Assembly (NCBI GenBank): GCA_964553615.1
Contig: CAZKMA010000021.1
Location: forward strand, 4,402-68,401
Reading direction: 5' to 3'
Origin: an uncultured Spirochaetales bacterium
GTDB taxonomy: Bacteria; Spirochaetota; Spirochaetia; DSM-27196; DATKUC01
Length of the DNA: 64,000 nt
Part shown: in pieces, positions 1-51,547 of the stretch
How positions within the stretch are numbered: position 1 is the first letter of the stretch
Layout of the letters: every line of letters starts with the position of its first letter
Translations under genes and position numbers: made by a program
The notes under the pieces: generated by a model
Told to the model about the DNA's origin: nothing
The model's input: only the letters and a program-made list of their open reading frames with translations
Database searches by the model: none

Positions 1-74
1 TGCCGGCCATACTCTTCTATTTTTCGGCCCAACGGTACATCGTGAAGGGTGTGACCCAGGGCGCGATCAAGTAG
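1..74 (+). CDS. carbohydrate ABC transporter permease, 3' end only (gene begins upstream of window)
   Basis: Frame 3 reads PAILFYFSAQRYIVKGVTQGAIK followed by TAG at 72-74. The QRY[IF]VKG.T.GA[IV]K tail is the typical C-terminus of MalG/BPD-type sugar ABC permeases. Confidence 0.6.
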   Translation, partial: PAILFYFSAQRYIVKGVTQGAIK

Positions 75-129
75 ACTCATCGGTTGTCCGGCCGCTGAAC
101 GACGCGCGCTTCTGGAGTATGATGGGGGA

Positions 130-1737
130 ATGGAGAACAAGCGCCTTTCGGGGTCAACGCACGGCAATAAACCGATAAGGAATTCATCCCACGGCACGCG
201 CGCACACACGGCGCCAGAGCCGTTTCGCGTAAAGCAGCGGGATCGGCAGTCAATTGAGCTGAAGTTTCGCTACATGCTCAGCCGCGAGCTCCGGCGCAAT
301 CGTCAGACATCGGATGTGAGCATCTATTTTTTCCTTCCGTACTCATTCAACGTCGGTCCGGATAACTACGACCGCAGTTCCTTTTATGACGATTTGAAGC
401 TCTATCTTCGTTTCAATACCCCGACCCTTACGGCCCAGGAGCTTCTGTCCCGTGAGTCCCGCATATCGCCCCTGGTCCGGGTTGAGCGCATGATACGCGC
501 CGCCCGAAGAGAGGGAAAGTCGATAGACAGCCGGAATTGCGTGTACGAGGGCAAGCTCCTCGGATGTATCTACAAATCACTCCTGCGGGATGTATTCGGC
601 AGCGCAGCCGCGGTATCTCCGCTTGGCCGGGAGACTTCCGTCTCTGGAGTCCGTGAATCCTTCAAGGAGATTCGCGACATTGCGCGGAGATTTCACCGTG
701 CAACCTCCGCAATAGAACAAAGGGTGAACGACGCCGATCCGGATCTTGTTCAGCACATGCGGATGATAGATGAGCATCTTTCGCTGCTGATCGAGAAATA
801 TGCGGCCACGCTCTTTCAGCGTCTTCGTGGTGGTGCGTCACGGGAGTTGCGGCATCAGTTGTCCCGTATTATTGCCAAGGAGATCGGTTACCGTGAGAAC
901 GCCGGCTATCCGACTGTCATCCGCGGCAGGCCCGATGAGGCAAAATTGGAGGAACACATCTACCGGGAGAAGATCCTGAAACGGTACGCTTCCGAAGTGC
1001 TGTTCTTTGATGTCAGACGCCGCAACACCGGGAAAGGCATGGAGCAGGTGCTTTACGCAGTGGCTGCCGGAATTGCCATGATTTTTGCAACCGGAATGGC
1101 ATTCCTCGGGCAATCCACCTACGGAAGGCTCACGACCTCGCTCTTCATCGTTCTGGTTGTGAGCTACATGCTCAAGGACCGGATGAAAGACTTTTTCCGG
1201 GATGCCTTTCGAAAAAGACTCGGCAGCCATTTTTTCGATCGAAGCGCACGGCTCTACGATTCACGGCACAGACGGAAACTTGCCATTGTCAGGGAAAGGA
1301 CCTCGTTTATTGCAGAGACGCGTATTGATCCTGTCGTCCGGGAGCTCAGGAATCGCGGAACCTTCGAGCGGGCGCTTGCGCGCACCACCGCCGAATCCGT
1401 ATTTCGTTACCACAAGAGGATTGTCCTGTTCACCAGGACTATGAAAGGAATTCACCGACGAATATCCGGGGTAGCCGACATCAGCATCATAGACCTGGGA
1501 GGCTTCCTTCGCGGTCTGGCGTCCCAACGCGGCCTCATTCCCTCGTTGGACGACAAGGGATCGATCGAGCTCAATCCGGTAAAACGGATCTACCACCTCA
1601 ACATGATTGTTCAAATGAAGACCGGTGATTCCGAAAGACAGTATCGCTACCGGATGATCATGGATGCGGGCGGCATTGTGCGCATCGAGCCGGTGGAAGG
1701 CGTGGATCCGATAGGCGGGGAACCGGTCGATTCTTAA
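130..1737 (+). CDS. hypothetical membrane protein (535 aa), no family recognised
   Basis: Long uninterrupted ORF. It has a charged N-terminal half, two central hydrophobic helices (VLYAVAAGIAMIFATGMAFLG and LTTSLFIVLVVSYML) and an Arg-rich C-terminal half. Opposite-strand ORFs inside it are shorter and look like shadows. Confidence 0.6.
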   Translation: MENKRLSGSTHGNKPIRNSSHGTRAHTAPEPFRVKQRDRQSIELKFRYMLSRELRRNRQTSDVSIYFFLPYSFNVGPDNYDRSSFYDDLKLYLRFNTPTLTAQELLSRESRISPLVRVERMIRAARREGKSIDSRNCVYEGKLLGCIYKSLLRDVFGSAAAVSPLGRETSVSGVRESFKEIRDIARRFHRATSAIEQRVNDADPDLVQHMRMIDEHLSLLIEKYAATLFQRLRGGASRELRHQLSRIIAKEIGYRENAGYPTVIRGRPDEAKLEEHIYREKILKRYASEVLFFDVRRRNTGKGMEQVLYAVAAGIAMIFATGMAFLGQSTYGRLTTSLFIVLVVSYMLKDRMKDFFRDAFRKRLGSHFFDRSARLYDSRHRRKLAIVRERTSFIAETRIDPVVRELRNRGTFERALARTTAESVFRYHKRIVLFTRTMKGIHRRISGVADISIIDLGGFLRGLASQRGLIPSLDDKGSIELNPVKRIYHLNMIVQMKTGDSERQYRYRMIMDAGGIVRIEPVEGVDPIGGEPVDS

Positions 1738-11265: not shown

Positions 11266-12966
11266 ATGAAACGAATCGCAGTGCTGTTGTTCTGTTTGGT
11301 TGCGCTGTCGTTTTCGTCCTTCGCCCAGGCGAACGGCTCGTCCGACATCACCAATTTCGCACTCGACTGGGGAGTAAACAGTGCAAACTCAGTGCTTCCC
11401 TTGCCGGAGACGGCGTACAGTTATCTCTATCCGGAGACAGCGTACCGCTACAATCCGAGCGTTCTTACCGATGTGAGGCGCGTGTACATCATGCCACATG
11501 TATACCTATCCGCGAATCACAATCAGCCCACCTACACCCGGCGCGATGCCACGATCGGCGCTCTCGGGGGCACTGAGACCACCACCAGCACCGGCCGGCA
11601 AATCGTACCGGATGCAACAGCCTTCATGCCGATCAGCAGTACGATATTTTCCGGGATCTCGGCCAGTTATACGAACAGAGGCGGAGAGACTACCGTGGTA
11701 GACGACCGGTACACTTCTGCCACGTCGAGCATTACCACCGTAAGCGGGAAGTCGCTTACCAGCGGATTCTCCGTACAGCCGTACTTCGCAGCAAAGCTCA
11801 GCGGTCTTGACATCGGTTTTTCGCCGCTGGTGGTCTACCAGAACTCCCCCGGGGACAAGGTGTTCAATACAACAACCGATGCCGCGGCGAATGGCGGGAA
11901 GACCTACTACACTGCCGGTGCAGGGGCAAGCCACCCGACAAGCACAAATATTCAACTCTCTGGAACCATCGGTGCCCGGAAGAGGACGGATGCACTGGAC
12001 ATCGGACTCGCATTCAATGCATCCTACCGCAGCTCCGACAAATCCAGTGTGTGGTATGCGGCAGATACCACCGGGAACACCTTTGCGGATACGATTGTGA
12101 CGGGTCAGAGTTACTACACGAACACGACGTGGGGTCTGGGAAATGCAGCATACGCCAATATGGACAAGGGAACATCCCTGAGTCTTGCGGTAACCCCGAG
12201 TGTTGTTTACACGGTGTCACCCGCGCTGAAGATCATCGGGATGGTGCAGTGGCAACCATACAACACGGTCCGGACACAGCAGTACCTGCGCACGACGGCG
12301 ACCGACAGGAGTGATTATCAGGAACACCAGACCTACGGTTTGTTGAACCTTGTTGCGGTGGGCGGCATCGAGGTCGTTCCGTTCGGCGGTGCGTCTCTCC
12401 GCGTGGGAATTGGATATACCTCCAGTAACTGGGAGAATCTGATCGCCGTTCAGACCAGCGCGGCGGGAACAAGTACGTTGACCGCGGGCAATCCCGGTTA
12501 TCCGGAGTTTGCACTCGGTGCGCAACCCGACAATCAGGTCGTTCAGAACGCGGGCAACTCAGATGCGTACGCGTCCAATGCAATTCTCCTTCTGACCGGA
12601 TTCCGGTGGGACATTACGCCGCGAATTACCGTCTTCAGCCGACTGGGAGCGACCCTCGAGTTCAAGAAAATCATCTATCGCGTCTTCAACACGAGCGACA
12701 ACAAAGTGTGGGAGGAGGTTTCTCCGTCAACTGATTTCTCGCTCGGTGCCGACCCTCTGCTTGGTGTTGCGGTGAAGATATCGGACAATGCTATCATTTC
12801 TCTCAGCGCACCAAGTGGCACGGGGAATATTTCAGTCTCGAGTCAGACGATCGGAGACGGCATTCCGCAGACGGGGGGAACCGCGACGACGACGACCACG
12901 ATCGACAGCACGACCTCCAGGAGTGGCGACTTTACCGTAGACTTGAACTTCATTCTCGGACTCTGA
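11266..12966 (+). CDS. secreted outer-membrane beta-barrel/porin-like protein (566 aa)
   Basis: Signal peptide MKRIAVLLFCLVALSFSSFAQA. The protein is rich in Thr/Ser/Gly/Asn/Tyr with alternating amphipathic stretches and no long hydrophobic helices. The family is not identified. Confidence 0.6.
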   Translation: MKRIAVLLFCLVALSFSSFAQANGSSDITNFALDWGVNSANSVLPLPETAYSYLYPETAYRYNPSVLTDVRRVYIMPHVYLSANHNQPTYTRRDATIGALGGTETTTSTGRQIVPDATAFMPISSTIFSGISASYTNRGGETTVVDDRYTSATSSITTVSGKSLTSGFSVQPYFAAKLSGLDIGFSPLVVYQNSPGDKVFNTTTDAAANGGKTYYTAGAGASHPTSTNIQLSGTIGARKRTDALDIGLAFNASYRSSDKSSVWYAADTTGNTFADTIVTGQSYYTNTTWGLGNAAYANMDKGTSLSLAVTPSVVYTVSPALKIIGMVQWQPYNTVRTQQYLRTTATDRSDYQEHQTYGLLNLVAVGGIEVVPFGGASLRVGIGYTSSNWENLIAVQTSAAGTSTLTAGNPGYPEFALGAQPDNQVVQNAGNSDAYASNAILLLTGFRWDITPRITVFSRLGATLEFKKIIYRVFNTSDNKVWEEVSPSTDFSLGADPLLGVAVKISDNAIISLSAPSGTGNISVSSQTIGDGIPQTGGTATTTTTIDSTTSRSGDFTVDLNFILGL

Positions 12967-12985: not shown

Positions 12986-13017
12986 AGCCTGTTCCCACGC
13001 GGGACAGGCTTTCTTCC
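12986..13017 (+). terminator. Rho-independent terminator after the OMP gene
   Basis: Stem agcctgt(t)ccc / gggacaggct with loop acgc, followed by the T-rich ttcttcc. Confidence 0.55.
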
Positions 13018-13069
13018 GTGACATATCCTTTCTTTGGGTGTAGTATTTTTACCAACCGGGGGGTGAAGG

Positions 13070-13552
13070 GTGAAAACGAGGTTTCTTGGACTCCTGCTTC
13101 TGGCGTTGAGCGCAGGAGTGGCGTTCGCACAGTCCGAAATGAGTGTCACCGTCAAGGAGACTCAGGTAAGGGATCGTCCGTCTTTTCTCGCAAAAAGCGT
13201 GGCGAAGGTTGCATACGGCGACAGGCTTACGGTGATGAGCAAGCGGAGCGGCTGGGTTCAGGTCAAGGTGCCTGCAAACGGCATGGAAGGCTGGGTCAGC
13301 GCGTCCGCGCTCACGGAAAAAAAGATAGTCTTTCAGGCCGGGGCGTCGAACGTCGACAAGACTGCGTCGAGCAGTGAGGTCGCACTTGCCGGTCGGGGAT
13401 TCAACAAAGAGGTCGAGGCGAAGTATAAGTCGGCCAACGATCTGGACTACACGTGGGTTGACCGGATGGAAACCTTCGGTGAGCCGACGAGCGCACTGGT
13501 GGCATTTATGGAGGCAGCAGGTCTCCATTACGGAAACGGGGGTGACAAATGA
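13070..13552 (+). CDS. secreted bacterial SH3 (SH3b) domain protein
   Basis: GTG start and signal peptide MKTRFLGLLLLALSAGVAFAQ. The SH3_3-like core is VRDRPSFLAKSVAKVAYGDRLTVMSKRSGWVQVKVPANGMEGWVSASAL. Confidence 0.7.
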   Translation: MKTRFLGLLLLALSAGVAFAQSEMSVTVKETQVRDRPSFLAKSVAKVAYGDRLTVMSKRSGWVQVKVPANGMEGWVSASALTEKKIVFQAGASNVDKTASSSEVALAGRGFNKEVEAKYKSANDLDYTWVDRMETFGEPTSALVAFMEAAGLHYGNGGDK

Positions 13553-14487
13553 AAAGGCTGCGTCCTCTTGGTTCCCGTCATGGCCGGCCGGTCGTTCTCT
13601 TTGGGATTGCCGCGGTGATAGTCTTGGCGCTTGGCAGTTGCACGAGTTTTTCGCTCGGCAACATTGGATCGCGAATTGTGTCCGGCGATATTACGCAGGA
13701 GCAGGCGAGCTCGGTGCAGAAGACCGTGACCGCAGTACAGAAGAGTACCGAGGATATTACGCCCGAGCAGGAATACTACATCGGGCGCGCCGTTGGTGCG
13801 GTTATCCTCCGGAAGTACAAACCCTATGACGATCCAAAGGCAGATACCTATATCAACACCCTTGGACAGGCCCTCTCGCTCGTTTCGGATCGCCCCGAAT
13901 TGTACCTCGGGTACCGATTTCTCATCCTGGACTCCAACGACATCAACGCGCTTTCCACGCCGAGTGGATTGGTTTTCATAACGCGCGGTCTGCTCAGGCT
14001 CGCTCACACGGAGGCCGGTGTTGCCGCGATCCTTGCGCATGAGATCGGTCACATAGAGGACAAGGATGCTATCAAGGCTATCAAGACCTCCCGCGTAACC
14101 GCGGCGCTGACGAATGCCGCAATTACGACCGCGCAGTTTGCCACCAGCCAGGACGTGGCAAAGCTCACATCGGTGTTCAGCGATTCAATCAACGACATAA
14201 CACAGAAGCTCGTGAACAGCGGTTATTCCCGGGGCGCGGAGCTGGAGGCCGACCATCAGGCGGTCCGGATTCTCGAGCGAGCGGGCTATGATCCGCACGC
14301 GCTTATCGATGTGCTCGAGCAGATGAAGACCCACCTGAAACCGGGTGGTCTGGACTTTGCGAAAACCCACCCGAGCCCGGATGTGCGCATAGAAGCTGCA
14401 CAGAAAGATATCGGTAATTATGTCGCGCCGGGGTACGACAGCACGGTGACTCGAAAACGGTTTGAAGCAGCAATGAACGGCATCTGA
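13549..14487 (+). CDS. M48 family zinc metallopeptidase, lipoprotein
   Basis: Overlaps the SH3b gene by 4 nt (ATGA). It has a lipobox-like LALGSC and the HExxH motif in AILAHEIGHIEDKD, plus a downstream E (GAELEAD). The architecture is Ste24/BepA-like. Confidence 0.85.
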   Translation: MKRLRPLGSRHGRPVVLFGIAAVIVLALGSCTSFSLGNIGSRIVSGDITQEQASSVQKTVTAVQKSTEDITPEQEYYIGRAVGAVILRKYKPYDDPKADTYINTLGQALSLVSDRPELYLGYRFLILDSNDINALSTPSGLVFITRGLLRLAHTEAGVAAILAHEIGHIEDKDAIKAIKTSRVTAALTNAAITTAQFATSQDVAKLTSVFSDSINDITQKLVNSGYSRGAELEADHQAVRILERAGYDPHALIDVLEQMKTHLKPGGLDFAKTHPSPDVRIEAAQKDIGNYVAPGYDSTVTRKRFEAAMNGI

Positions 14488-14501
14488 TTCGAGGTGGGCG
14501 T

Positions 14502-16679
14502 ATGATGGAAAAAGGCGCGGCTATGCGACCCCGGCTTCTCCGCGGTGTTCTTATTGGAGCCGGGGCGGGAATCCTTGCGATCATTATCTGGTTGAGCGGA
14601 ATCCTTGCCGGTTTCGAATCACCGACCTGGGATGCGCGGGTCAGAATGTTCGCTCACCCCGATGCGGCAACGAGCCAGGTCGTTCTGATTCTGCTGGATC
14701 AGAACAGTTTCGACTGGGGCAAGAGCACGAACGGCTGGTCGTGGCCATGGCCACGCGAAGTCTACGGCGCAATTGTGGATTTCTGTAACCGTGCAGGTGC
14801 AAAGTCACTCGCGTTCGACGTGCTCATCGCCGATCCATCGTCCTACGGCGTTGCAGACGATCAGGCACTCGGAGCGTCGATCAAGGATTACGGTCGGTTC
14901 GTCGCAGCCGCGTTCCCGGGAAATGAAAAGGGAGGCGCCACCGCGTGGCCGAGTGGAGTACCGGTTCCGGGTCTCTCCGTCAACGGACTGCAAAGCTGGC
15001 TTTCCCCGTCCATTCAACCTGTGCTCCGTGACCCCTATGTCCTGTTTCCTATTCCTGAGATGGCGCGAAATAGCCGCATGCTGGGTGCCGCAAGCTTCAC
15101 GAAGGACCCCGACGGTGTGTACCGTCGCGGGAGACTCTTCACCCTCTTCGACGGGCGGGTCGTTCCTTCGATTGCTCTTGCCATGTACGCGGCGGCGGAC
15201 TCTTCCGTTCCACAGATCTCGATTCGTCCGGGGACCCTGGTGGTCGACGGCAGAAACATTCCGATCAACAGCACAGGGCAGGCTCTTCTGCATTATGTAA
15301 CCCGGACCAACACCCACAAGAGCTACTCCGCCGCGGCAATTATCCAGAGCGACATTCAGCTCCAATCGGGAGAAAAACCGAACATCGATCCGAAAGAGCT
15401 TGCAGGCAAGTATGTGCTGTTCGGGTTTTCCGCTCCCGGTCTGCTCGACCTCCGTCCTTCGCCGATCGATCCGATTGTTCCCGGTACCGAGATCCACGCG
15501 ACGATGCTCGACAATCTCCTGTCGAACTCGTTCATGCGCGACATGCCGGTCTGGGAGACCATGGCACTGTTTCTGCTCTTCGGAATAGCTGCCGGAGTAG
15601 CGGGATCGGTCGTCGCCGGTGTTGTTGCCACCCCACTGCTCTTTATCCTCGTACTCGCCGCGCCGGTTGGTCTGAGTTTTCTCTTTTACGGCGGCGGTGT
15701 GTGGATGCCGCTCATCGGGATGGAGCTCGGGGGCGTGCTCGCGCTCGTGGGTGCAAATGTCTTGAACTATGCCACCGAGGGGCGTCAGCGGCGCTACATC
15801 AAGAACGCGTTTCAGCAGTATCTGAGTCATGCAGTTATCGATCAGCTCATTGCCCATCCGGAACGCCTTACGCTTGGCGGTGAGCGTCGCGAGCTCTCGA
15901 TATTCTTTTCCGATCTGCAGGGATTCACCGGCATTTCCGAAGGTCTTTCGCCTGAAGAGCTCACCGCGCTCCTGAATGACTATCTTTCGGCAATGACCGA
16001 CATTATTCAGGAGGAGGGCGGCACCATCGACAAGTACGAGGGAGATGCCATTATCGCCTTCTGGAATGCTCCGGTACCTCAGGAAGACCACGCAATCCGG
16101 GCGGTTCGCGCTGCTCTCCGGTGTCAGGCGGCGCTCGCAGAGCTCAGGCCCGCATTCAGGGAGCGCGTGGGCAAGGACCTTTTCATGCGTGTGGGAATTA
16201 ACACCGGGCCCGCGGTCGTCGGAAATATGGGTTCTCACACCCGGTTCGATTACACGATGCTCGGTGACGCAGTGAACCTGGCGTCGAGGCTGGAAGGAAT
16301 CAACAAGCAGTTCGCCACCTACACCATGATATCTCAGGCAACTCTGAACGCCATAGACGGCGCGTTTCCCGCGCGCGAGCTTTCACGCGTAGCAGTGGTC
16401 GGGCGCAAGGAGCCGGTGGTCGTCTACGAGCCGATGTTCCAGGAGGAGTATGCGGCCGCCACGGAAAGTCTCGCCGCCTTTGCGGAAGCGCTTCCCCTGT
16501 TCTATGAAGGGCGTTTCCTCGAGGCGGCCGAAAAGTTCGAGGATTGCCCGGACACTGATCCCGCCGCGCGAATGTACGCGAAGAAATGCAGACAACTTGC
16601 CGAGCAATACGGCAGCACATCGACATCGGACGATCCGCCTTCCGACTGGACCGGCGTCTGGATCATGACGGAGAAGTAG
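14502..16679 (+). CDS. CHASE2 sensor domain-containing class III adenylate/guanylate cyclase
   Basis: An N-terminal TM is followed by a ~330-aa periplasmic region (CHASE2-like: ILLDQNSF...WPWPR), then three TM helices. The cyclase core follows (LSIFFSDLQGFTGISE...DKYEGDAIIAFWNAP...RVGINTGPAVVGNMGS..RFDYTMLGDAVNLASRLE). Confidence 0.9.
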   Translation: MMEKGAAMRPRLLRGVLIGAGAGILAIIIWLSGILAGFESPTWDARVRMFAHPDAATSQVVLILLDQNSFDWGKSTNGWSWPWPREVYGAIVDFCNRAGAKSLAFDVLIADPSSYGVADDQALGASIKDYGRFVAAAFPGNEKGGATAWPSGVPVPGLSVNGLQSWLSPSIQPVLRDPYVLFPIPEMARNSRMLGAASFTKDPDGVYRRGRLFTLFDGRVVPSIALAMYAAADSSVPQISIRPGTLVVDGRNIPINSTGQALLHYVTRTNTHKSYSAAAIIQSDIQLQSGEKPNIDPKELAGKYVLFGFSAPGLLDLRPSPIDPIVPGTEIHATMLDNLLSNSFMRDMPVWETMALFLLFGIAAGVAGSVVAGVVATPLLFILVLAAPVGLSFLFYGGGVWMPLIGMELGGVLALVGANVLNYATEGRQRRYIKNAFQQYLSHAVIDQLIAHPERLTLGGERRELSIFFSDLQGFTGISEGLSPEELTALLNDYLSAMTDIIQEEGGTIDKYEGDAIIAFWNAPVPQEDHAIRAVRAALRCQAALAELRPAFRERVGKDLFMRVGINTGPAVVGNMGSHTRFDYTMLGDAVNLASRLEGINKQFATYTMISQATLNAIDGAFPARELSRVAVVGRKEPVVVYEPMFQEEYAAATESLAAFAEALPLFYEGRFLEAAEKFEDCPDTDPAARMYAKKCRQLAEQYGSTSTSDDPPSDWTGVWIMTEK

Positions 16680-16684
16680 TCGGC

Positions 16685-18073
16685 ATGATCACATTTCTCC
16701 TGGACCGGATAGTCCGCGCAATGCAGGGCGGCGGAAATCCGTACGCGGTCTCTCTGATGAGCCGTGCAGGGCGGCGCGCCTGGTACCGAGGACGAACCGA
16801 GATTCAGGATTCCGAGACTGAATTCGGTGCGGGGCTGCTCTATCACCTCCAGGAGAAGAGGCTCGTCCCGTCCATGCGATGGGCGGCGACCCATTCGCCT
16901 TACTACCGTGAGCTGTTCGCCCAAAATCACGTAACCCCGCGGGATATCCGCTCGATCGCCGATCTTCGCGCTCTTCCGTTTACAGAACGCGAGCACCTTG
17001 CGGAATGGAGACGATTTCTCGCGGTACCCGAAGGTGAGGTGTACCGTATTGTCACCTCTGCCGGTACCCGCGGAACCGCCCGGACCACAGCCTTCACCGC
17101 GGCGGACTGGCATCGGGTCTGTTCCGCCCGTTCCGTTGCAATCGGGAGCCTGCTTCCGCGATCGGTCTGGCACCACGGCCGACCAAAGGCGCTCTTGATT
17201 TCTCAACCCGCCATACCCATGTGGGCGGACGCGGAATCTACCGCCGATGCCCTCAGACTGCTCGGATTCGACGTGCTGACCGTGCCGGATTCTGAGCCGG
17301 AGGAGGCCGTGCGCTGGATAGTGGATTTCGAACCGCCCGTAATTGCCGGGACGCCTCTTTCTCTGTGGAGCACTGCCCGCTGTGCGTCGGAGGTTCGCGC
17401 TTCCTTCAAACCTTCGCTTATCCTCGGACTCGGTGAACACGCGACACCTGCGGTTCGTGCACAGACCGAGTCTCAGTGGGGTCTGGCGCCCGTGGAAGGG
17501 TACGGAAGCGCTGAAATTGGCGGAATCCAGACCATATCCCTTCCGAACTGCCGTGGTGTTCATCTGAATGGTCTCGACTTCATTTGTGAAGTGATAGATC
17601 CCGACACGGGAGAGGCGGCTCCACTCGGCGAACTGGTCATTACGACCATGCTCCGGAAGGCTATGCCCCTGATCCGTTACCGTACCGGGGACACGGTTCG
17701 CCTTGTGCAGCACAATTGCAGGGTTCCATTTCCGTCAGTCGAGATTGTCGGCGACGACGATTCGCTCCTCTGGGGAGGGGTGCGTATCTCCGCATCCGAG
17801 CTCGTTGCGCGGCTTCAAACGCAGATCGGTTTCGCCGGAAAACTGGAATTGACGGCGGAATGGGTGGATGGCCGGGAACTTCTGACCTGCACCGTGGAGG
17901 GAGATCCTGATGAGCGTGGCGCGGCAGAACGCGTTCGAGCCGGAATAGAAGCAGCGTATCCGGGGATATCGGAAGACCGCCGGGAAGAGTCGAGATTCGA
18001 AGTCCGGGTGAGAGATCAGTTGCGGAGCCAGGTGAAATCCTACCGTATTCGGGATTTCAGATCGTTGCAATAG
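16685..18073 (+). CDS. adenylate-forming enzyme, phenylacetate-CoA ligase/coenzyme F390 synthetase-like
   Basis: PaaK-like order of motifs (HSPYYRELF...DIRSIADLRALPFTEREHL...YRIVTSAGTRGTARTTAFT...EGYGSAE...YRTGD). The P-loop is atypical, with TRGTAR where TTGKPK is expected. The ATG at 16685 lies 5 nt after the cyclase stop. Confidence 0.7.
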   Translation: MITFLLDRIVRAMQGGGNPYAVSLMSRAGRRAWYRGRTEIQDSETEFGAGLLYHLQEKRLVPSMRWAATHSPYYRELFAQNHVTPRDIRSIADLRALPFTEREHLAEWRRFLAVPEGEVYRIVTSAGTRGTARTTAFTAADWHRVCSARSVAIGSLLPRSVWHHGRPKALLISQPAIPMWADAESTADALRLLGFDVLTVPDSEPEEAVRWIVDFEPPVIAGTPLSLWSTARCASEVRASFKPSLILGLGEHATPAVRAQTESQWGLAPVEGYGSAEIGGIQTISLPNCRGVHLNGLDFICEVIDPDTGEAAPLGELVITTMLRKAMPLIRYRTGDTVRLVQHNCRVPFPSVEIVGDDDSLLWGGVRISASELVARLQTQIGFAGKLELTAEWVDGRELLTCTVEGDPDERGAAERVRAGIEAAYPGISEDRREESRFEVRVRDQLRSQVKSYRIRDFRSLQ

Positions 18074-18084
18074 AGGAGGATGCG

Positions 18085-18684
18085 GTGGACGCAGCAAAGA
18101 GTGTTCTCCTTTTCTCGAGCGGCATCCGTTACCCCAGCCCGTTTGCACGGCTTCAGCTTGCTCGGATCATATCCTCAATGGAGGCTGTTTCAGTACGGAA
18201 GACCTCGCGTCTCGATCGTCTCGGGCGGCTCGAAACAGCGGATACACCCGGAGTAGTGCTGCACGTCGGACACTCAACGCCGAACCAGGGAAACGGAGAT
18301 GCAGAGGCATTCATTGACGACTATCTGTTGCAGGGGGGTGGTGTTCTTGTTGTTGGAGGATCCGCTGCACCGAACGTCGATTCAAAAACTACCATACGGC
18401 AGGCGATACTCGTGCACCAGATCAACGAGTTTTCGCGAGTGTTCGATCAGACTGCAGACTTCACCATTGAGGAGACGCTCGTTCCCGCGATTTCCGGGAT
18501 CTCATACGATGTTCATTTCGCGGGATTCGACGCAACCGGAAACAGCGTTCCTGCGGTCTGGACCCGCTATCGCGGCAAAGGACGAATGTGCGGGATCGCA
18601 TTCGGAAACCGATCCGTAACCCTCAGGAACCCGCAGGTGCGAGGCATTATTCATCAGGCACTCAGATGGATGCTCATGACCTGA
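18085..18684 (+). CDS. hypothetical protein, possibly ThuA-like/class-I amidotransferase-like fold
   Basis: GTG preceded by GAGGAGGA. It is the last gene of the operon. Only weak resemblance (VLLFSSG...GGGVLVVGG...KGRMCGIAFGN) supports the fold suggestion. Confidence 0.5.
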   Translation: MDAAKSVLLFSSGIRYPSPFARLQLARIISSMEAVSVRKTSRLDRLGRLETADTPGVVLHVGHSTPNQGNGDAEAFIDDYLLQGGGVLVVGGSAAPNVDSKTTIRQAILVHQINEFSRVFDQTADFTIEETLVPAISGISYDVHFAGFDATGNSVPAVWTRYRGKGRMCGIAFGNRSVTLRNPQVRGIIHQALRWMLMT

Positions 18685-18685
18685 A

Positions 18686-19096
18686 CTACGGATTCTGCCC
18701 GCTCTGAGCTTTCCCGTTCTGCTGTTGTTTGAGGTAATCCTGCAGGATCTGAACGAGCTCCTGGAGCGTCTCTTTCGGAATCTGATTCAAACGGGCTTCC
18801 ATCTGAGAAGCGAGTTTCTTCAGTTCAGCCGTTGATTCCTTTGTCTTCTGAATGTCTCCGATGAGGGACTCCATCGTTGCGCGGAGCTCGCTCAGACTCT
18901 TCACGTCCGACTTGACCTTGCGCACCTCGTTCGTGTTTTCGGCAATACCTGCGCGGGTCTCCTCCTGTACGGTGGCCAGGTGTGTGTCCACGTACTGGGT
19001 AGTGGCGAGGAATCCAAGAAATCCGGTGGAAGCACAACTCGAGAGCAGGAGGCTGAGAGAGATCGCACCGACGGCCATGGAAAGAGAAAGCTTCAT
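18686..19096 (-). CDS. coiled-coil lipoprotein
   Basis: Signal plus lipobox (LSLLLSSC), then a heptad-rich, Glu/Lys/Gln-rich sequence to the C-terminus. Confidence 0.7.
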   Translation of the reverse strand: MKLSLSMAVGAISLSLLLSSCASTGFLGFLATTQYVDTHLATVQEETRAGIAENTNEVRKVKSDVKSLSELRATMESLIGDIQKTKESTAELKKLASQMEARLNQIPKETLQELVQILQDYLKQQQNGKAQSGQNP

Positions 19097-19146: not shown

Positions 19147-20094
19147 TCAAGTGGAGATGAGTGTATTGACGGCTTCCGTCGCTGCGGCAATCTGCGTGGC
19201 CGGGTCTTCGGGCAGGACACGAAAGGGCGTCCCCATCGCAGAGAGAAGGGAACCGTACGTCTCCAGTTGTTCTCCCGCGGAGCGTGGATCGATGAGAGTC
19301 AGGTCGTAGTGGTCGCGCTCTGCCGCCTGCTGAAGCAGAAGCAGGGTCCGTGAATCAATGTCCGGGAATCTCGCACGCGCCTCGACGCCGATGCGAAGTG
19401 CGGATGTCGCGATGATCAGCACGCGATCGGCCTGACGTGCGAGCGCAGCTTCGGATGCATGCTGGGCGCGCAGAATGATGGAAAGATCCGAAGGTTCTAT
19501 TGACCGGTTGTGGTATTTCTCCCAGAAAATCTGATAGGCAGGTACAAAGAGCGTTTCAAAATGCTGAGCCACCGCGTGCGCGAACCCATCGCTCTCTGAT
19601 ATTATCTGGACCCGTTTCAGGAAGTAGGGACGGACCGGTTCCGGGATATACTTCCAGTACCGCATAGGGGAAGTTCGAATATCGGTTGCCGAAACGGGGA
19701 ACTGCGTTCGTGACGGATCCACTGCAATGAATGTTGCCCCAAGATCTGAAGCAAGCTGTATTCCGTACTGTTCAGACGCAAATACGAAGGAAATGGGGCC
19801 GCTCACGTGCGATCGGATAGTGTCCGCCCAGATACCCGTTGACCCGGGAACATCCTTCCGTGCTTCCGGGACTGCTTCGGTAATATGGACCATCTGAACG
19901 CCCGGAAAGAGTTCCTTCATCCACGAGTATCTCAGGCTTCCGGGAATCGGTTCGTTCGGAAGGGTGCATACGAGTACCGTCAGCTCATCGCAATAGCTGC
20001 GTGCAAAGTTGACCAGGTAGAGATGCCCGTAGTGGGGAGGCATGAAGCGGCCAATGACCACGCCACGAGTGGGGGTGTGGGACGTTGTTTGCAT
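19147..20094 (-). CDS. nadR: NadR-type nicotinamide-nucleotide adenylyltransferase with degenerate ribosylnicotinamide-kinase-like domain
   Basis: N-terminal cytidylyltransferase motif GVVIGRFMPPHYGHLYLV (H-x-G-H). The C-terminal half aligns in layout with the NadR kinase domain, but the P-loop position reads IISESDGFA, with no GK[ST]. Confidence 0.7.
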   Translation of the reverse strand: MQTTSHTPTRGVVIGRFMPPHYGHLYLVNFARSYCDELTVLVCTLPNEPIPGSLRYSWMKELFPGVQMVHITEAVPEARKDVPGSTGIWADTIRSHVSGPISFVFASEQYGIQLASDLGATFIAVDPSRTQFPVSATDIRTSPMRYWKYIPEPVRPYFLKRVQIISESDGFAHAVAQHFETLFVPAYQIFWEKYHNRSIEPSDLSIILRAQHASEAALARQADRVLIIATSALRIGVEARARFPDIDSRTLLLLQQAAERDHYDLTLIDPRSAGEQLETYGSLLSAMGTPFRVLPEDPATQIAAATEAVNTLIST

Positions 20095-20139
20095 AACCGG
20101 TCAACTATAGTAACATTAATCCCGGGGAGGGGGAACATC

Positions 20140-21123
20140 ATGCACGAAGATCGCACATACCTTATTGGATTCGACCTCGGCGGTACGAAGATGCTCGGCT
20201 GCCTTCTGGACCGGAAACTCGACATCGTGGCGCGAAACAAACAGAAGGTTGGAGACGGTTCCAGCGCCGAGCAGGTGTTCACCCGGATCCTGAGCTGCAT
20301 TCACAATCTGCTCGAGACGGCGAAGGTCGACATTTCTCAAGTTGCAGGAGCCGGAGTAGCTATCCCCGGGCCTATCGATCTTGCGAACGGTGTTGTGCTG
20401 GAGACCCCGAACCTCGGATTCCGCAATTTTCCGCTGAAGAAGCGACTGGCTGCGGAACTTGGAATTCCCGTCATCCTTGAGAATGATGTGAACGCCGGGA
20501 CGTACGGCGAGTACGTGAAGGGGGTCGCAAAGGGTATGAAGCACCTCCTCGGCGTATTTCCCGGAACGGGGATTGGCGGCGGGATCATCATAGACGGGAA
20601 ACTCTATCGCGGGGCAACCGGCGGCGCCGGCGAGGTTGGCCATATGATCATACAGGTAGACGGCAGACTTTGCGGCTGCGGCCAGTACGGTTGCCTCGAA
20701 TCGGTTGCGTCCAAAACGGCAATCTCGAAGGATGCAGCAATGCTCGCCGCGACCGGCAGCGCGCAGACCATGGCCAAGCTCGCCGGAAGCGACATCTCGA
20801 AGATGAAGAGCAGTGTTTTTTCCAAAGCGATTGTCGGAGGCGACAAATCCATTGCACGTCTTGTAGACCGTTCCGCGAGCTTCCTCGGGATCGGGCTGGC
20901 CAATCTTGTGAACATTTTCAATCCCGAGGCAATAGTCCTTGGCGGCGGACTCGTTGAGCGATTCGGGAAATCGTACGTGGCGATTGTTGAGCGGTCCATG
21001 CAGGAGCACGCTATGCCGTATCTGGCGAAGGGCGTGAAGCTTCTGGAAGCACAACTGGGCGATGATGCGGTGGCGATTGGAGTCGGATCGCTCCTGTCGG
21101 ATCATCTTGCCGATCGGAAATAG
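20140..21123 (+). CDS. ROK family sugar kinase (glucokinase-like)
   Basis: YLIGFDLGGTKM (ATP-binding DxGGT). ROK signature with zinc cysteines (GEVGHMII...CGCGQYGCLE). The ATG at 20140 is preceded by a G-rich RBS. Confidence 0.85.
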   Translation: MHEDRTYLIGFDLGGTKMLGCLLDRKLDIVARNKQKVGDGSSAEQVFTRILSCIHNLLETAKVDISQVAGAGVAIPGPIDLANGVVLETPNLGFRNFPLKKRLAAELGIPVILENDVNAGTYGEYVKGVAKGMKHLLGVFPGTGIGGGIIIDGKLYRGATGGAGEVGHMIIQVDGRLCGCGQYGCLESVASKTAISKDAAMLAATGSAQTMAKLAGSDISKMKSSVFSKAIVGGDKSIARLVDRSASFLGIGLANLVNIFNPEAIVLGGGLVERFGKSYVAIVERSMQEHAMPYLAKGVKLLEAQLGDDAVAIGVGSLLSDHLADRK

Positions 21124-21134
21124 CACGTAAAAAC

Positions 21135-22685
21135 ATGGAAGCGAAACGTCCGCACGGCTACAAGACAGTAGCGGTCATCGATATCGGCTCGACGGCAATC
21201 CGCATGGTCATAGCGGAGATCGACCCGGAAGGGGACTGGCGAAGGCTTGACCGGGCAGCGAAACCGCTCCCGCTCGGACGGGATGTATTCATGTCCGGAT
21301 ACCTCAGCCGGGAAACAATGCTCGGGGCGGTGAAAATTCTGACCGGATTTCTGGAACTGCTGTCCGGCTGGCACATAAGCCCCAGAGACGTGCGGGTAAT
21401 TGCGACCAGTGCCATCCGCGAGGCACGGAATCGGGATACCTTTGTTGACAGGGTTTCCATCCGGACCGGACTCCGTATCAACATCATAGAAGGCGTCGAA
21501 GAGAACCATCTCACCTATCTCGCGGTCCAGCATGCCGTAACCAACATGCAGGGACCGTTCGCCCGTTCGAGCTCCCTGATCATCGAGGTCGGTGGCGGGA
21601 CGACCGAGGTCATGATGCTGGATCGAGGAAAGATGGTCGCGGCGCACTCTTTCCGCATCGGGACTGTACGGATCGAACAGACGGTGAGGCCACGCTGGGA
21701 ATCCGGAAGCCAGATGGAAGAGTATCTCCGCGAAAATCTTCGGGGAACTCTGGAGATAATGAACACGGAGTTGAAGCTTGCGCGCATCCACTACTTTGTG
21801 GCAGTCGGTGGAGATGCACGCCTTGCCGCCTCCAATGTTGGGCGTCAGGAAGCGGAACATTACTGGCTCATCGACAAGAAGGCATTTAACGATTTCCTGA
21901 CGGAACTCGAAGAGCTTTCGGTCGATCAGATTGTGAGCAAACTCGCTGTAACATATAACGAGGCGGAAGGACTCGTGCCGGCACTTGTCATCTATCGTCT
22001 TTTTCTCGAGGCCACGAGCGCTACCCAGCTCATTGTTCCGGACGTCAGTATCCGAGAAGGAATGCTCGTCAGTTTCGCGCTCGGAACCGCGAAGGATGTC
22101 GAACAGCAGCTGTATGGCCAGGTCATCACATCCGCGATGAGTATTGGCCGAAAGTATCATTCGGACGAGAAACACGCGCTGCACGTCCGGAATCTGGCAC
22201 TATCATTTTTTGATCAGTTCCAGGCCGAACACGGGCTGGACGGACACTCCCGCCTTCTCATGGAAGTTGCGGCCATCCTGCACGACATCGGGAACTTCGT
22301 GCGCGCGAGTGGCCACCACAAGCATGGGCAATATCTGGTCGCGAATTCGGAGATTTTCGGGCTGTCGCGGGACGATATACGGATCATCTCCAACGTAATT
22401 CGCTATCATCGAAAATCAATGCCGTTGGCATCGCACAGTACCTTCATCTCTCTTCGCCAGGAACAACGGATTGTGGTTCAAAAGATTGCGGCAATGCTTC
22501 GCATTGCCGACGGACTGGATCGCAGCCATCTGCAGCGCGTGAAGTCAGTCCGGATCGAGGTGAAGGAGGGCGATCTCCTGGTCCACTGTGAGAACCACGG
22601 AGATATCTCGGTGGAGAAATACGGCATGCCGGCAAAGGCACAGATGTTCGAGGATGTGTTCGGATACAATGTTGTGATCACATAA
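21135..22685 (+). CDS. ppx: exopolyphosphatase / GppA phosphatase with C-terminal HD domain
   Basis: Ppx/GppA ASKHA fold (VAVIDIGSTAIRMVIAEI...ATSAIREARN...EVGGGTTE) and an HD region (AAILHDIGNFV..SGHHKHG). Confidence 0.9.
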   Translation: MEAKRPHGYKTVAVIDIGSTAIRMVIAEIDPEGDWRRLDRAAKPLPLGRDVFMSGYLSRETMLGAVKILTGFLELLSGWHISPRDVRVIATSAIREARNRDTFVDRVSIRTGLRINIIEGVEENHLTYLAVQHAVTNMQGPFARSSSLIIEVGGGTTEVMMLDRGKMVAAHSFRIGTVRIEQTVRPRWESGSQMEEYLRENLRGTLEIMNTELKLARIHYFVAVGGDARLAASNVGRQEAEHYWLIDKKAFNDFLTELEELSVDQIVSKLAVTYNEAEGLVPALVIYRLFLEATSATQLIVPDVSIREGMLVSFALGTAKDVEQQLYGQVITSAMSIGRKYHSDEKHALHVRNLALSFFDQFQAEHGLDGHSRLLMEVAAILHDIGNFVRASGHHKHGQYLVANSEIFGLSRDDIRIISNVIRYHRKSMPLASHSTFISLRQEQRIVVQKIAAMLRIADGLDRSHLQRVKSVRIEVKEGDLLVHCENHGDISVEKYGMPAKAQMFEDVFGYNVVIT

Positions 22686-22699
22686 GGGCAAGTTTAATT

Positions 22700-24868
22700 A
22701 TGGAAAATGTAGTTCGCAGGTACAAGAAGCACGAAGGGGGCCGCTACTTCAATCGGGAGTTGAGCTGGATCGAGTTCAACCGTCGGGTGTTGTCCGAGGC
22801 TATTCGACAGGACATCCCCCTTCTGGAACGGCTTCGATTTCTCTGCATTGTGGCATCAAATTTCGACGAGTTCTTCATGGTCAGGGTGGCATCTCTGAAG
22901 CGGCAGATTCAGACCCGGAACAAGGTTGTATGTCCGTCCGGAATGAGCCCCGAAGAGCAGTTGCGCGAAGTCATACAGCGAGTCCGAGAAATGGTTGCAA
23001 CGAAGTATGATTGCCTGCTGAACGACATCATGCCGAAACTCGGAGATGCCGGCCTTCTGCTCAAGACACCGGAGACGTATTCGCCGCAACAGAAGAGATA
23101 TCTGGAGGAGCTGTTTCGGGAGGAGATCTTTCCCGTTTTAACCCCCGTCCGATGCGAGCTTGGCAAACCTCTTCCCTATTCGGGAAATCTCCGGCTTCAT
23201 GCGGCGTTTCTGCTTCGACCGATCGTACGCGAACATCTTCTTATTCCCGAAGCGGGGGAGCTTTCGTTTGCCATTGTGCAGATTCCATCCGGTATACCGA
23301 GGATTCTCTACCTGCCGGATTCTGAAGGCTCAGTCTCTTTCGCTCTGCTCGAACACGTGGTTGTCGAACATGCAGCCCAGCTGTTCCCGGGTTACGAAAT
23401 TGTTGAAGACATCTTCTTCCGTGTAACACGCGACGCCGACCTGGGCGTGGACGAAGAACGCGATGAAGACTTTGTCGAGGCGATGACTCAGGTCCTCGAA
23501 TCTCGCCGATCCGGAATGGCAGTACGATTGAGCCTGAACAAACCCACTGCACGCTTGCGAAACATCCTTACCGAGGCACTTGGCCTGGACCCGTCCGAGG
23601 TGTATGTCAAAACAGACCCGATGGATCTGAGTACCTTCATGGAGCTGGTGGAATTACCGGGCTTTGATCATCTTCGGAACGAGAAGTGGATTCCGCAGGA
23701 TTCGCCCTATGTTCCCGAGGAAAGCTCCATCTGGGATGCAATCAAGAAGCAGGACATTCTTCTTCATCATCCCTTCGAATCGTTCGGTCCCGTAATTCGT
23801 CTGGTGCGGGAGTCTGCCGAGGATCCGGCTGTTCTTGCAATCAAAATGACACTGTACCGTACCAGCGGAACGTCGCCTATTGTGCACGCGCTGGAGCTCG
23901 CCGCTGAAAATGGGAAACAGGTGACCGTTCTCGTTGAACTCAAGGCACGATTTGATGAAGAGCAGAATATCGAATGGGCCCAGCGGCTGGAACGCGCAGG
24001 GGTCATTGTGGTGTACGGCATTGCGCGCTTGAAAGTGCACGCAAAGGCGCTTCTTATTATCCGGCGGGAGGAGAAAGGGATAACCCGTTACGTCCACCTC
24101 GGCACCGGCAACTATAACGACAAGACCGCGCGACTGTACACCGATCTTGGCCTCCTGACCGCAGATGATGATCTCGCCTACGAGGTTGGTCTGTTCTTCA
24201 ATTCCATTACCGGTTATTCCGCAATTCCCGCACTCAGTAAGCTCGTCATGGCGCCCACAGCGCTGAAGGGACGGTTGCTGCAGCTCATTGACCGGGAAGC
24301 TCAGAGGTCGACTCCGGAAAATCCCGGGGTGGTTATCCTCAAGCTGAATGCCCTTGCGGATCCGGACATCATAGAGGCGCTCTATCGCGCATCGGGCCTC
24401 GGAGTCAGAATCTCTCTCATCGTTCGTGGAATCTGTATGCTCGTTCCGGGAGTGCAGGAGATGAGCGAAAACATTACCGTCATGAGCGTCGTGGACCGGT
24501 ATCTGGAGCATTCGCGTCTCTACTACTTTTACAACGGCGGAGCCGAGGAAATATTTTGCGGCAGCGCGGATCTCATGCCGCGGAACCTCGAAAGACGCGT
24601 GGAGCTGCTGTTCCCTGTCGAAGATGCCGGACTGAAGAAGCGTATCAAGAAGGTTCTGGACACCTACCTGACCGACAGCTCGAACTCTCACATACTCCAG
24701 AAGGATGGAAGTTACGTCAGACGGGTGCCGGGGAGTGGCCCGGCAAAGCGATCTCAGCAGGTGCTCTACGATGCCGCCCGCAGCAGGGCGGACATCGTAG
24801 CTCCGGTCAATCGGAAAGAGTTCAATGTTCGCCGCAAGCCTTCCGCCTCCGGCCGTGCGCATGTCTAG
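22700..24868 (+). CDS. ppk: polyphosphate kinase 1
   Basis: YFNRELSWIEFNRRVLSEA at the N-terminus. Two PLD-like HKD-type domains (KVHAKALLI, YLEHSRLYYF). Full-length PPK1 layout. Confidence 0.95.
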   Translation: MENVVRRYKKHEGGRYFNRELSWIEFNRRVLSEAIRQDIPLLERLRFLCIVASNFDEFFMVRVASLKRQIQTRNKVVCPSGMSPEEQLREVIQRVREMVATKYDCLLNDIMPKLGDAGLLLKTPETYSPQQKRYLEELFREEIFPVLTPVRCELGKPLPYSGNLRLHAAFLLRPIVREHLLIPEAGELSFAIVQIPSGIPRILYLPDSEGSVSFALLEHVVVEHAAQLFPGYEIVEDIFFRVTRDADLGVDEERDEDFVEAMTQVLESRRSGMAVRLSLNKPTARLRNILTEALGLDPSEVYVKTDPMDLSTFMELVELPGFDHLRNEKWIPQDSPYVPEESSIWDAIKKQDILLHHPFESFGPVIRLVRESAEDPAVLAIKMTLYRTSGTSPIVHALELAAENGKQVTVLVELKARFDEEQNIEWAQRLERAGVIVVYGIARLKVHAKALLIIRREEKGITRYVHLGTGNYNDKTARLYTDLGLLTADDDLAYEVGLFFNSITGYSAIPALSKLVMAPTALKGRLLQLIDREAQRSTPENPGVVILKLNALADPDIIEALYRASGLGVRISLIVRGICMLVPGVQEMSENITVMSVVDRYLEHSRLYYFYNGGAEEIFCGSADLMPRNLERRVELLFPVEDAGLKKRIKKVLDTYLTDSSNSHILQKDGSYVRRVPGSGPAKRSQQVLYDAARSRADIVAPVNRKEFNVRRKPSASGRAHV

Positions 24869-50725: not shown

Positions 50726-51547
50726 TTGGCAGATCAGGCATTGCGCGGCAAAGCAGTAGTTGTGACCGGTTCGAGCCGCGGCATTGGACGCGAGACGGCA
50801 CTTCGTTTGGGACTGCTCGGTGCCGGTGTCGTCATAAACGGCCGTGATACGGCTGTGCTCGAAAGGTCACGGGATTATCTTCTCCAACACGGCGTAGATG
50901 TGAATGTCTGCCAGGGCGATGTGACCAATCCTGAGGACTGTCGACGGCTGGTAGAGACGTGCGTAACCCGCTATGGAAGACTCGATGTATTGGTAAACAA
51001 CGCGGGAGTATCCATGCGAGGCACGTTTTCCGACCTCGTTCCTGAGGTGGTCGATCGCGTGTTGACCACAAACATTGCCGGAGCAGTGCTTCCATCCGTT
51101 GCTGCAATGTCCGAGCTCCGCAGGTCCGGCGGCTCGATCGTCTTCATCTCAAGTCTCGCGGCACTGCGCGGTTTCCCCGGAGTCTCTATCTACTCGGCGG
51201 CAAAGATGTCACTGACCGCAATTGCCCAATCCCTCGAAGCTGAGTTGTATGGTTCGGGCGTCCATGTCGGGATCGTCTATCTCGGTTTCACCGAGAATGA
51301 TCCCGAAAAGCGTTCCCTCTCCTCCGACGGATCGGAGATTTCCGTTCGGAGGAGGGCGCACATGACACAGGCTCAGGCTGCCGAACGTATTGTCAGCCTG
51401 GTGCTCCGGAGGAAACGGACTAGTGTCCTGACCATCGAGGGCCGACTTCTGGGTTTGCTTCAGAGGATGTTCCCGCGGCTCGTTCAGTTTGTCATGAACC
51501 GGTCCGGGGGGAAGATTCACCTGGAGGCAAACCATGACCGACCTTGA
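50726..51547 (+). CDS. short-chain dehydrogenase/reductase (SDR)
   Basis: TTG start. VVVTGSSRGIGRETA (TGxxxGxG), NNAG, and catalytic S...YSAAK. Confidence 0.85.
   Translation: MADQALRGKAVVVTGSSRGIGRETALRLGLLGAGVVINGRDTAVLERSRDYLLQHGVDVNVCQGDVTNPEDCRRLVETCVTRYGRLDVLVNNAGVSMRGTFSDLVPEVVDRVLTTNIAGAVLPSVAAMSELRRSGGSIVFISSLAALRGFPGVSIYSAAKMSLTAIAQSLEAELYGSGVHVGIVYLGFTENDPEKRSLSSDGSEISVRRRAHMTQAQAAERIVSLVLRRKRTSVLTIEGRLLGLLQRMFPRLVQFVMNRSGGKIHLEANHDRP

Follow-up and report, generated by a model that had tools for sequence, protein, structure and literature searches.

What the CHASE2 domain of a receptor cyclase detects, and which neighbouring genes share in the detection, is the question raised by a run of five closely packed genes (g1 to g5) in DNA from an uncultured Spirochaetales bacterium (contig CAZKMA010000021.1). 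The window, meaning the whole stretch of DNA analysed, is 64,000 nucleotides (nt) long. CHASE2 is among the commonest extracytoplasmic sensor domains in bacteria and, to our knowledge, the NsrA/uL2 case of Sinorhizobium is the sole exception to a general ignorance of its signal and of how that signal is perceived. The original prediction made for this locus, that CHASE2 ligands are generally unknown, therefore holds broadly but not for Sinorhizobium. In order, the five genes are predicted to encode a small secreted protein with an SH3b domain, an M48 lipoprotein metalloprotease, a CHASE2 adenylate cyclase, a PaaK-like adenylate-forming enzyme and a protein with a partial match to ThuA. The functional unit is probably not this set of five but an envelope-sensing cassette made up of the first three, in which g1 and g2 would act upstream of the CHASE2 domain as a co-sensor.

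To survey the neighbourhood of the cyclase, one genome per GTDB species was scanned with an alignment of the cyclase family, and the best 80 of at least 587 matching stretches were taken; the cyclases surveyed belong to one orthologous family. Neighbours were sought in each locus by phmmer, using the proteins of the window against six-frame open reading frames (ORFs). An M48 gene was present in 65 of the 67 loci with at least 1 kb of upstream DNA. Where 1.55 kb or more of upstream DNA was available, 61 of 64 loci showed the full order SH3b, M48, cyclase on one strand, and the median intergenic gap within the triad was about 15 nt. By their record titles, the loci come from Spirochaetota, from Desulfobacterota/Thermodesulfobacteriota, from Verrucomicrobiota/Kiritimatiellia/Lentisphaerae and from a few Gammaproteobacteria, namely Nitrincola alkalilacustris and a metagenome-assembled genome (MAG) of the Ectothiorhodospiraceae. 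The three exceptions were L060 and L063, where the genes before the cyclase encode unrelated oxidoreductases, and the fragmentary locus L080. All-against-all clustering of the neighbouring ORFs from the 80 loci yielded no further common gene; the next clusters after the triad consisted of shadow ORFs of the triad itself, generic histidine kinases and ABC ATPases. The flanks of the triad loci were otherwise unrelated, and the contexts seen in metagenome collections agree with this. Same-strand genes lying no more than 80 nt 3′ of the cyclase included QueF (5 of 30) and metallo-beta-lactamase (MBL)-fold proteins (2 of 30); the others were singletons, with transporters among them.

The linkage was also seen when the search was run from the partner genes. 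Homologues number from over a hundred for g1 to thousands for g2 and g3. The two most distant g1 matches (41-43% identity) both lie in a triad, and so do two M48 matches on contigs outside the listed cyclase hits, making four out of four with the g1 look-ups. These results show that the three genes have been passed on together, as one block, across phyla. The coupling of SH3b and M48 genes to a CHASE2 cyclase that had originally been proposed therefore withstands the comparison of neighbourhoods that could have overturned it, whereas the proposal of a five-gene unit does not, since g4 and g5 are missing from all 80 genome loci.

All three products of the triad are predicted to have parts outside the cytoplasm: g1 carries a signal peptide, g2 a lipobox and g3 a CHASE2 domain. 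In a mirror-tree comparison of 52 complete triads, the distance matrices of the periplasmic parts correlated more strongly among themselves (r = 0.52-0.69) than with that of the cyclase domain. The g1 tail tracked the M48 protease best (r = 0.66; partial r = 0.58 when controlling for the cyclase domain). This co-variation of the periplasmic parts is suggestive, and constitutes weak evidence.

The g3 product has the make-up of a CHASE2 receptor, with a CHASE2 domain that scored 159.9 bits against a Pfam cut-off of 26.3, flanking transmembrane helices, and the catalytic residues of a class III cyclase (Guanylate_cyc, 74.5 bits). In the AlphaFold2 model, helices span residues 2-31 (the first transmembrane segment lying within), 350-370, 376-397 and 405-439, and the predicted local distance difference test (pLDDT) score of the CHASE2 region is 90.5. 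A Foldseek comparison of the CHASE2 model with solved structures found none of similar fold (best E = 0.36). Class III cyclases use two metal-binding aspartates, a lysine/threonine specificity pair, and a transition-state asparagine and arginine. Residues D471, K511, D515, T585, N592 and R596 of g3 are invariant in an alignment of 27 sequences. Because of the Lys/Thr pair, and because its best solved relatives are adenylate cyclases, including Pseudomonas aeruginosa CyaB (3r5g, E = 5.5e-37), g3 is predicted to be a class IIIb adenylate cyclase. Its nearest named relatives are in Spirochaetia MAGs and Salinispira pacifica. Beyond the catalytic domain, g3 has a C-terminal extension (residues 642-725, nucleotides 16425-16676) that is conserved to its last residues with the consensus WxGVWVMTSK; W716, G718, T723 and K725 are invariant. 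Seven of the MAG contigs (L006, L051, L057, L073, L078, L082 and L083) have the cyclase or M48 gene broken into two or three frame-shifted pieces, which may be assembly errors or pseudogenes.

The g2 product matched Peptidase_M48 with 98.2 bits against a Pfam cut-off of 20.3. Because the HExxH motif and the downstream glutamate zinc ligand are invariant, g2 is assigned to the M48 metalloproteases. The motif reads HEIGH, as first described, and lies at residues 164-168; in an alignment of 29 sequences H164, E165, H168, E231 and His274 are all invariant. His274 sits in a THP motif that aligns with the THP of the BepA protease domain, and we take this histidine to be the counterpart of the regulatory His246 of BepA. 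The cysteine of the lipobox (LGSC, residues 28-31), Cys31, is likewise invariant across the family, so that lipidation is predicted. Taken together, the features of its sequence indicate that g2 would be a catalytically intact, lipid-anchored periplasmic zinc protease. In Escherichia coli, the residue after the lipobox cysteine decides sorting to the outer membrane, a rule of uncertain applicability to spirochaetes; the threonine found at this position in g2 suggests outer-membrane sorting by that rule. If g2 is sorted in this way, there would be one component of the triad for each layer of the envelope. The nearest solved relatives of g2 are a Geobacter M48 protein (3c37) and the BepA protease domain. 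BepA and LoiP are the curated models nearest to it. It is not an equivalog of either, scoring 100.8 against a cut-off of 570 and 55.3 against a cut-off of 365, respectively, with the NCBIfam models; its 312 amino acids hold a protease domain only, with no tetratricopeptide repeat (TPR) domain. The relatives of g2 are uniform, at about 300-317 amino acids, and showed no other domain architecture or fusion.

The g1 product has a signal peptide ending AFA|QS, followed by an SH3b domain (residues 22-83) and a conserved tail (residues 84-160). The domain scored 36.3 bits with SH3_3 (Pfam cut-off 27), was modelled by AlphaFold2 with pLDDT above 90 and has a bacterial SH3 fold. In Foldseek it superposed on the SH3b domains of the NlpC/P60 dipeptidyl-peptidase VI and of the endolysin Psm with root-mean-square deviations of 1.5-1.7 Å. 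Judged by these nearest folds, it would be an SH3b domain of the peptidoglycan-hydrolase type and is predicted to bind peptidoglycan or a peptide. Conservation within the protein peaks in the tail core, where the frequency of the majority residue is 0.80, compared with 0.65 in the SH3b domain. When modelled alone, the tail core gave pLDDT values of 36-63, and the tail alone matched no Pfam family at E ≤ 10. Strongly conserved yet without a confident fold of its own, the tail core is a candidate for folding against a partner protein, and its model is what such a role would lead one to expect. Relatives of g1 are about 160 amino acids long throughout, and no fusions or other domain architectures were seen among them. 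NCBIfam holds no dedicated model for g1 or g2.

The two remaining genes differ from the triad in their distribution. The g4 product had no match in Pfam, and the NCBIfam models it resembled, of PaaK and DVU_1553 type, all scored below their cut-offs (DVU_1553 family, 162.8 against 300; PaaK, 123.3 against 646). Its best solved relative is PaaK (2y27, E = 7e-32 over residues 52-412). As in PaaK and the wider ANL family, it keeps the motifs YGxAE (here YGSAE) and YRTGD and the C-terminal lysine. It differs from PaaK 2y27 in an extra conserved N-terminal region of about 50 residues and in the P-loop, where SAGTRGTAR stands in place of SSGTTGKPT. The atypical loop TSAGTRGTAR reported in the original prediction was found at residues 124-133; it departs from the canonical [ST]SGTTGxPK, which more distant members of the subfamily keep. 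From these motifs, g4 appears to be a divergent PaaK-like adenylate-forming enzyme. Its subfamily is rare, with 14 cluster representatives at E ≤ 1e-30 among 1.84 billion proteins. The g5 product matched ThuA barely above the cut-off (35.2 bits against 33.4), over residues 149-196 only, which correspond to the last 48 positions of the profile (162-209). A search of its sequence against solved structures in the PDB gave nothing significant.

The g4 gene was found next to the closest relatives of the cyclase only (L002/L003 and L087, 68-69% identity; L086, 74%), and lies 3-5 nt after the cyclase in four related contigs. Besides the 80 genome loci, g4 and g5 are both absent from L001, L004 and L088, the last with a cyclase 62% identical to g3. 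The g5 gene is present in L002 and L087 and absent from L086. Among 80 metagenome loci holding general PaaK-like relatives (≤31% identity), none had a triad gene or g5 nearby. Because g4 and g5 are confined to the closest relatives, the five genes resolve into the conserved triad and what appears to be a lineage-specific appendage that is not part of the cassette. The idea that the ligase acts downstream of the cyclase is accordingly not supported, the ligase being found only beside the closest relatives of the cyclase. The picture of the operon is corrected to this extent, and g4 and g5 should not be used for interpreting the sensor.

Elsewhere, other genes follow the cyclase. In loci of the Verrucomicrobiota/PVC (Planctomycetes-Verrucomicrobia-Chlamydiae) group (L045, L046, L058, L059 and L060), a QueF-like gene of about 136-140 codons lies some 3-170 nt after it. 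One of these loci, L060, lacks SH3b and M48 genes before the cyclase. In one lineage (L171:1-6221 and L172:1-6157) the same strand carries, after the triad, genes for an MBL-fold protein and for an MscS-type mechanosensitive channel with a cyclic-nucleotide-binding domain. It is plausible that the channel is an effector of cyclic AMP (cAMP), which would fit an envelope or osmotic theme.

The five genes, with the spacing originally given for them, were all recovered from the ORF list and by direct translation (Table 1). The mechanical ORF of g4 opens at 16586; its relatives begin at a conserved MITFLLD/MVTFLID in the alignment, and the start was therefore placed where they align. Upstream of g1, the hairpin of the terminator that had been predicted was confirmed by folding. 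It occupies 12986-13010 and is followed by UUUCUUCC; a 61-nt stretch containing it folds with -27.7 kcal/mol (z = -4.9), and 0 of 200 shuffled sequences folded equally well. Inside the cluster, promoter-like matches (3 observed, 4.3 expected in shuffled sequence) and terminator-like matches (6 observed, 8.7 expected) were no commoner than by chance, so the sequence gives no convincing sign of the internal signals that would have spoken for independent transcription. The regional total of promoter-like matches, which includes the sigma-70-like site just 5′ of g1, was also not above chance. Nothing in the sequence argues against a single transcript for the five genes. In this lineage g4 and g5 are probably co-transcribed with the triad, which is made plausible by their 5- and 11-nt gaps and by Shine-Dalgarno-like sequences. 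The stop codon of g5 and that of a convergent gene for a coiled-coil lipoprotein (18686-19096, minus strand) are one base apart, and there is therefore no space for a terminator between them.

Table 1. Coordinates of the genes, predicted protein regions and transcription signals at the locus (positions in the window)
Feature	Nucleotides	Amino acids	Strand	Remarks
Terminator-like hairpin and U-rich tract	12986-13017		+	closes the upstream 566-aa gene
Sigma-70-like promoter match	13018-13046		+	GTGACA-17-TAGTAT; just 5′ of g1; consensus match only
g1	13070-13552	160 aa	+	GTG start; ORF list, direct translation
g1 tail core	13364-13471	aa 99-134	+	ASSxEVALAG[KR]GFNxEVEAxYKxxxxLDYTWVDRME
g2	13549-14487	312 aa	+	4-nt overlap with g1 (ATGA)
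g3	14502-16679	725 aa	+	14-nt gap after g2
g3 periplasmic CHASE2 (predicted)	14610-15551	aa ~37-350	+	between predicted transmembrane helices
g3 transmembrane segments and linker (predicted)		aa 350-439	+	three long helices
g3 class III catalytic domain	15891-16412	aa 464-637	+	Pfam and alignment
g4	16685-18073	462 aa	+	5-nt gap after g3
g5	18085-18684	199 aa	+	11-nt gap after g4

Among characterised systems, the nearest to the triad is that of Sinorhizobium meliloti, in which the CHASE2 cyclases CyaK, CyaD1 and CyaD2 perceive a protein-type signal, uL2, via the outer-membrane protein NsrA, which this perception requires (PMC13001267, PMC7529298). On pSymB, the gene directly before cyaK encodes a 1197-amino-acid FecR-domain protein; its stop codon overlaps the start codon of cyaK, which begins at the last base of that gene (L173:1228-6770). 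The two genes are probably translationally coupled. The FecR-domain protein matches NsrA, whose beta-barrel portion is residues 600-1200 (PMC7529298), in size and position. The two systems are alike in having an inner-membrane CHASE2 class III adenylate cyclase, g3 being about 31% identical to CyaK over the CHASE2 and catalytic domains, and an envelope accessory gene placed tightly upstream of the receptor gene. They differ in the accessory itself. In S. meliloti this is a single outer-membrane protein of about 1200 amino acids with FecR and beta-barrel parts, whereas here the accessories are a 160-amino-acid SH3b-tail protein and an M48 lipoprotein protease. No FecR domain was found by Pfam in the genes of the cassette, which is therefore not of the NsrA-CyaK type, and the annotated genes around cyaK on pSymB include no M48 or SH3 gene. 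In a plasmid collection that holds pSymB, g1 had no match, g2 matched distant M48 proteases only, and g3 matched CHASE2 cyclases of rhizobia, whose accessory gene is of another kind.

Other likenesses lie with known periplasmic proteases. Like BepA, LoiP and YcaL of E. coli, g2 has a HExxH motif with a glutamate ligand, the histidine of the THP motif (aligned with BepA) and a predicted periplasmic location. LoiP and YcaL are lipoprotein-anchored, as g2 is predicted to be. It differs from BepA in having no TPR domain, and from all three in being dedicated to a cyclase operon; we know of no such dedication for the E. coli proteins. In the CpxP-DegP-CpxA and NlpI-Prc systems, a small periplasmic protein, by being proteolysed or by serving as an adaptor, determines how active a membrane sensor is or which target is chosen. 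The logic of the triad may be similar by analogy, with unrelated protein families and with cAMP, not phosphorylation, as the output.

Regulated proteolysis would be the most likely mechanism of the cassette. The tail of g1 may be a substrate or partner of the g2 protease, or the ligand read by the CHASE2 domain, or both. The SH3b domain of g1 would couple the cassette to the cell wall, and the periplasmic CHASE2 domain of g3 would drive the cytoplasmic adenylate cyclase domain, so that the cAMP output would report the state of the envelope. We put forward only tentatively the version in which proteolysis produces the CHASE2 ligand. Its most specific form is doubtful as it stands: the SH3b-tail protein would be a pro-ligand tethered to the cell wall, the M48 protease would cleave or free the tail upon envelope perturbation, and CHASE2 would read the product.

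Several points weigh against an envelope-sensing cassette of three genes. The cyclase orthologues of L060 and L063 have no adjacent partners, and the cyclase can therefore stand alone. Gene order shows linkage and not mechanism, and both phylogeny and unequal rates of evolution confound the mirror-tree correlations. A single orthologous cyclase family, represented by the best 80 of at least 587 matches, says nothing on CHASE2 in general. The same conservation and localisation evidence would also serve a different arrangement, in which g2, targeted by g1 as an adaptor in the manner of NlpI-Prc, cleaves the CHASE2 domain itself and switches the cyclase irreversibly on or off. The distances of M48 and CHASE2 show the highest partial correlation (0.59), as such cleavage would have it. 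However, this arrangement leaves unexplained why the g1 tail should be the most conserved element, and no cleavage-site motif was identified in CHASE2; we regard it as unlikely. Alternatively, g1 and g2 may be ordinary envelope quality-control factors of the BepA/LoiP/YcaL kind that merely share a promoter with the cyclase. The similarity of g2 to the protease domains of BepA and LoiP, and of the SH3b domain to those of cell-wall hydrolases, is in keeping with co-location of this sort. Yet the order and adjacency of the three genes are strict across several phyla while all other neighbours change, the g1 and g2 families were found in the triad alone in every look-up made, and the g1 tail forms a conserved, dedicated module that belongs to no Pfam family. 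Co-location without a signalling link is thus quite unlikely.

The close spacing of g4 and g5, the lack of a convincing internal terminator, the position of the ligase immediately after the cyclase in the four related contigs and the rarity of the ligase subfamily would all suit a single pathway of five genes, in which the PaaK-like ligase and the ThuA-like protein would work either downstream of cAMP or upon the molecule that is sensed. Such a pathway is nevertheless improbable given the absence of the ligase both from every one of the 80 genome loci and from L001, L004 and L088, the absence of g5 from L086, the heterogeneity of the genes 3′ of the cyclase elsewhere (QueF, MBL-fold proteins, transporters), and the fact that 0 of the 80 loci with PaaK-like relatives carry a triad gene. 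As a general unit, the five genes are largely refuted by these comparisons. A further candidate arose from PADLOC, in which g3 matched the PycC cyclase models of Pycsar, a cyclic-nucleotide anti-phage system (best E = 8e-32). The match is confined to the class III catalytic domain that the two share. There is no adjacent effector gene with a cyclic-nucleotide-binding domain, g1, g2, g4 and g5 had no PADLOC matches, the neighbouring genes are housekeeping genes, and the specificity pair is the Lys/Thr of CyaB and other adenylate cyclases. With only generic matches to the cyclase domain and no effector, a defence system was rejected as highly improbable.

The wider surroundings of the cluster in the window are of mixed kinds. 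Between a DRTGG-like gene and g1 lies a gene (11266-12966, plus strand) for a 566-amino-acid secreted protein rich in Thr, Ser and Gly. In the close relative L086 this gene is missing from the corresponding place, and it has the look of an insertion specific to the lineage. The protein was considered as an NsrA-like partner and rejected, having no Pfam match and no homologue in any triad locus. On the other side (19147-24868) are genes for a NadR-like nicotinamide mononucleotide adenylyltransferase, a ROK kinase, Ppx/GppA and polyphosphate kinase. L002, L086 and L087 keep this gene order, evidence that the surroundings of the cassette are locally syntenic within the lineage. Further away (51534-53066, plus strand), a 510-amino-acid ORF joins an N-terminal family-2 glycosyltransferase to a C-terminal phosphotransferase system EIIA-2 domain, an unusual fusion.

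No description of the triad came up in a full-text literature search that paired CHASE2 with M48, metalloprotease or SH3, although automated neighbourhood resources may already display the link. The SH3b-M48-CHASE2 triad is thus apparently a widespread and undescribed case of a receptor cyclase with an envelope co-sensor encoded upstream. As the cassette is intact in at least four bacterial lineages, it names two specific periplasmic partners and one short conserved peptide segment. This gives a concrete and testable lead to what CHASE2 domains detect, and makes their perception approachable by experiment. If the pro-ligand version of the mechanism is true, CHASE2 would sense a periplasmic peptide that the cell makes itself and that a protease gates, and the triad would be a bacterial protease-activated receptor cyclase linking outer membrane, peptidoglycan and inner membrane.

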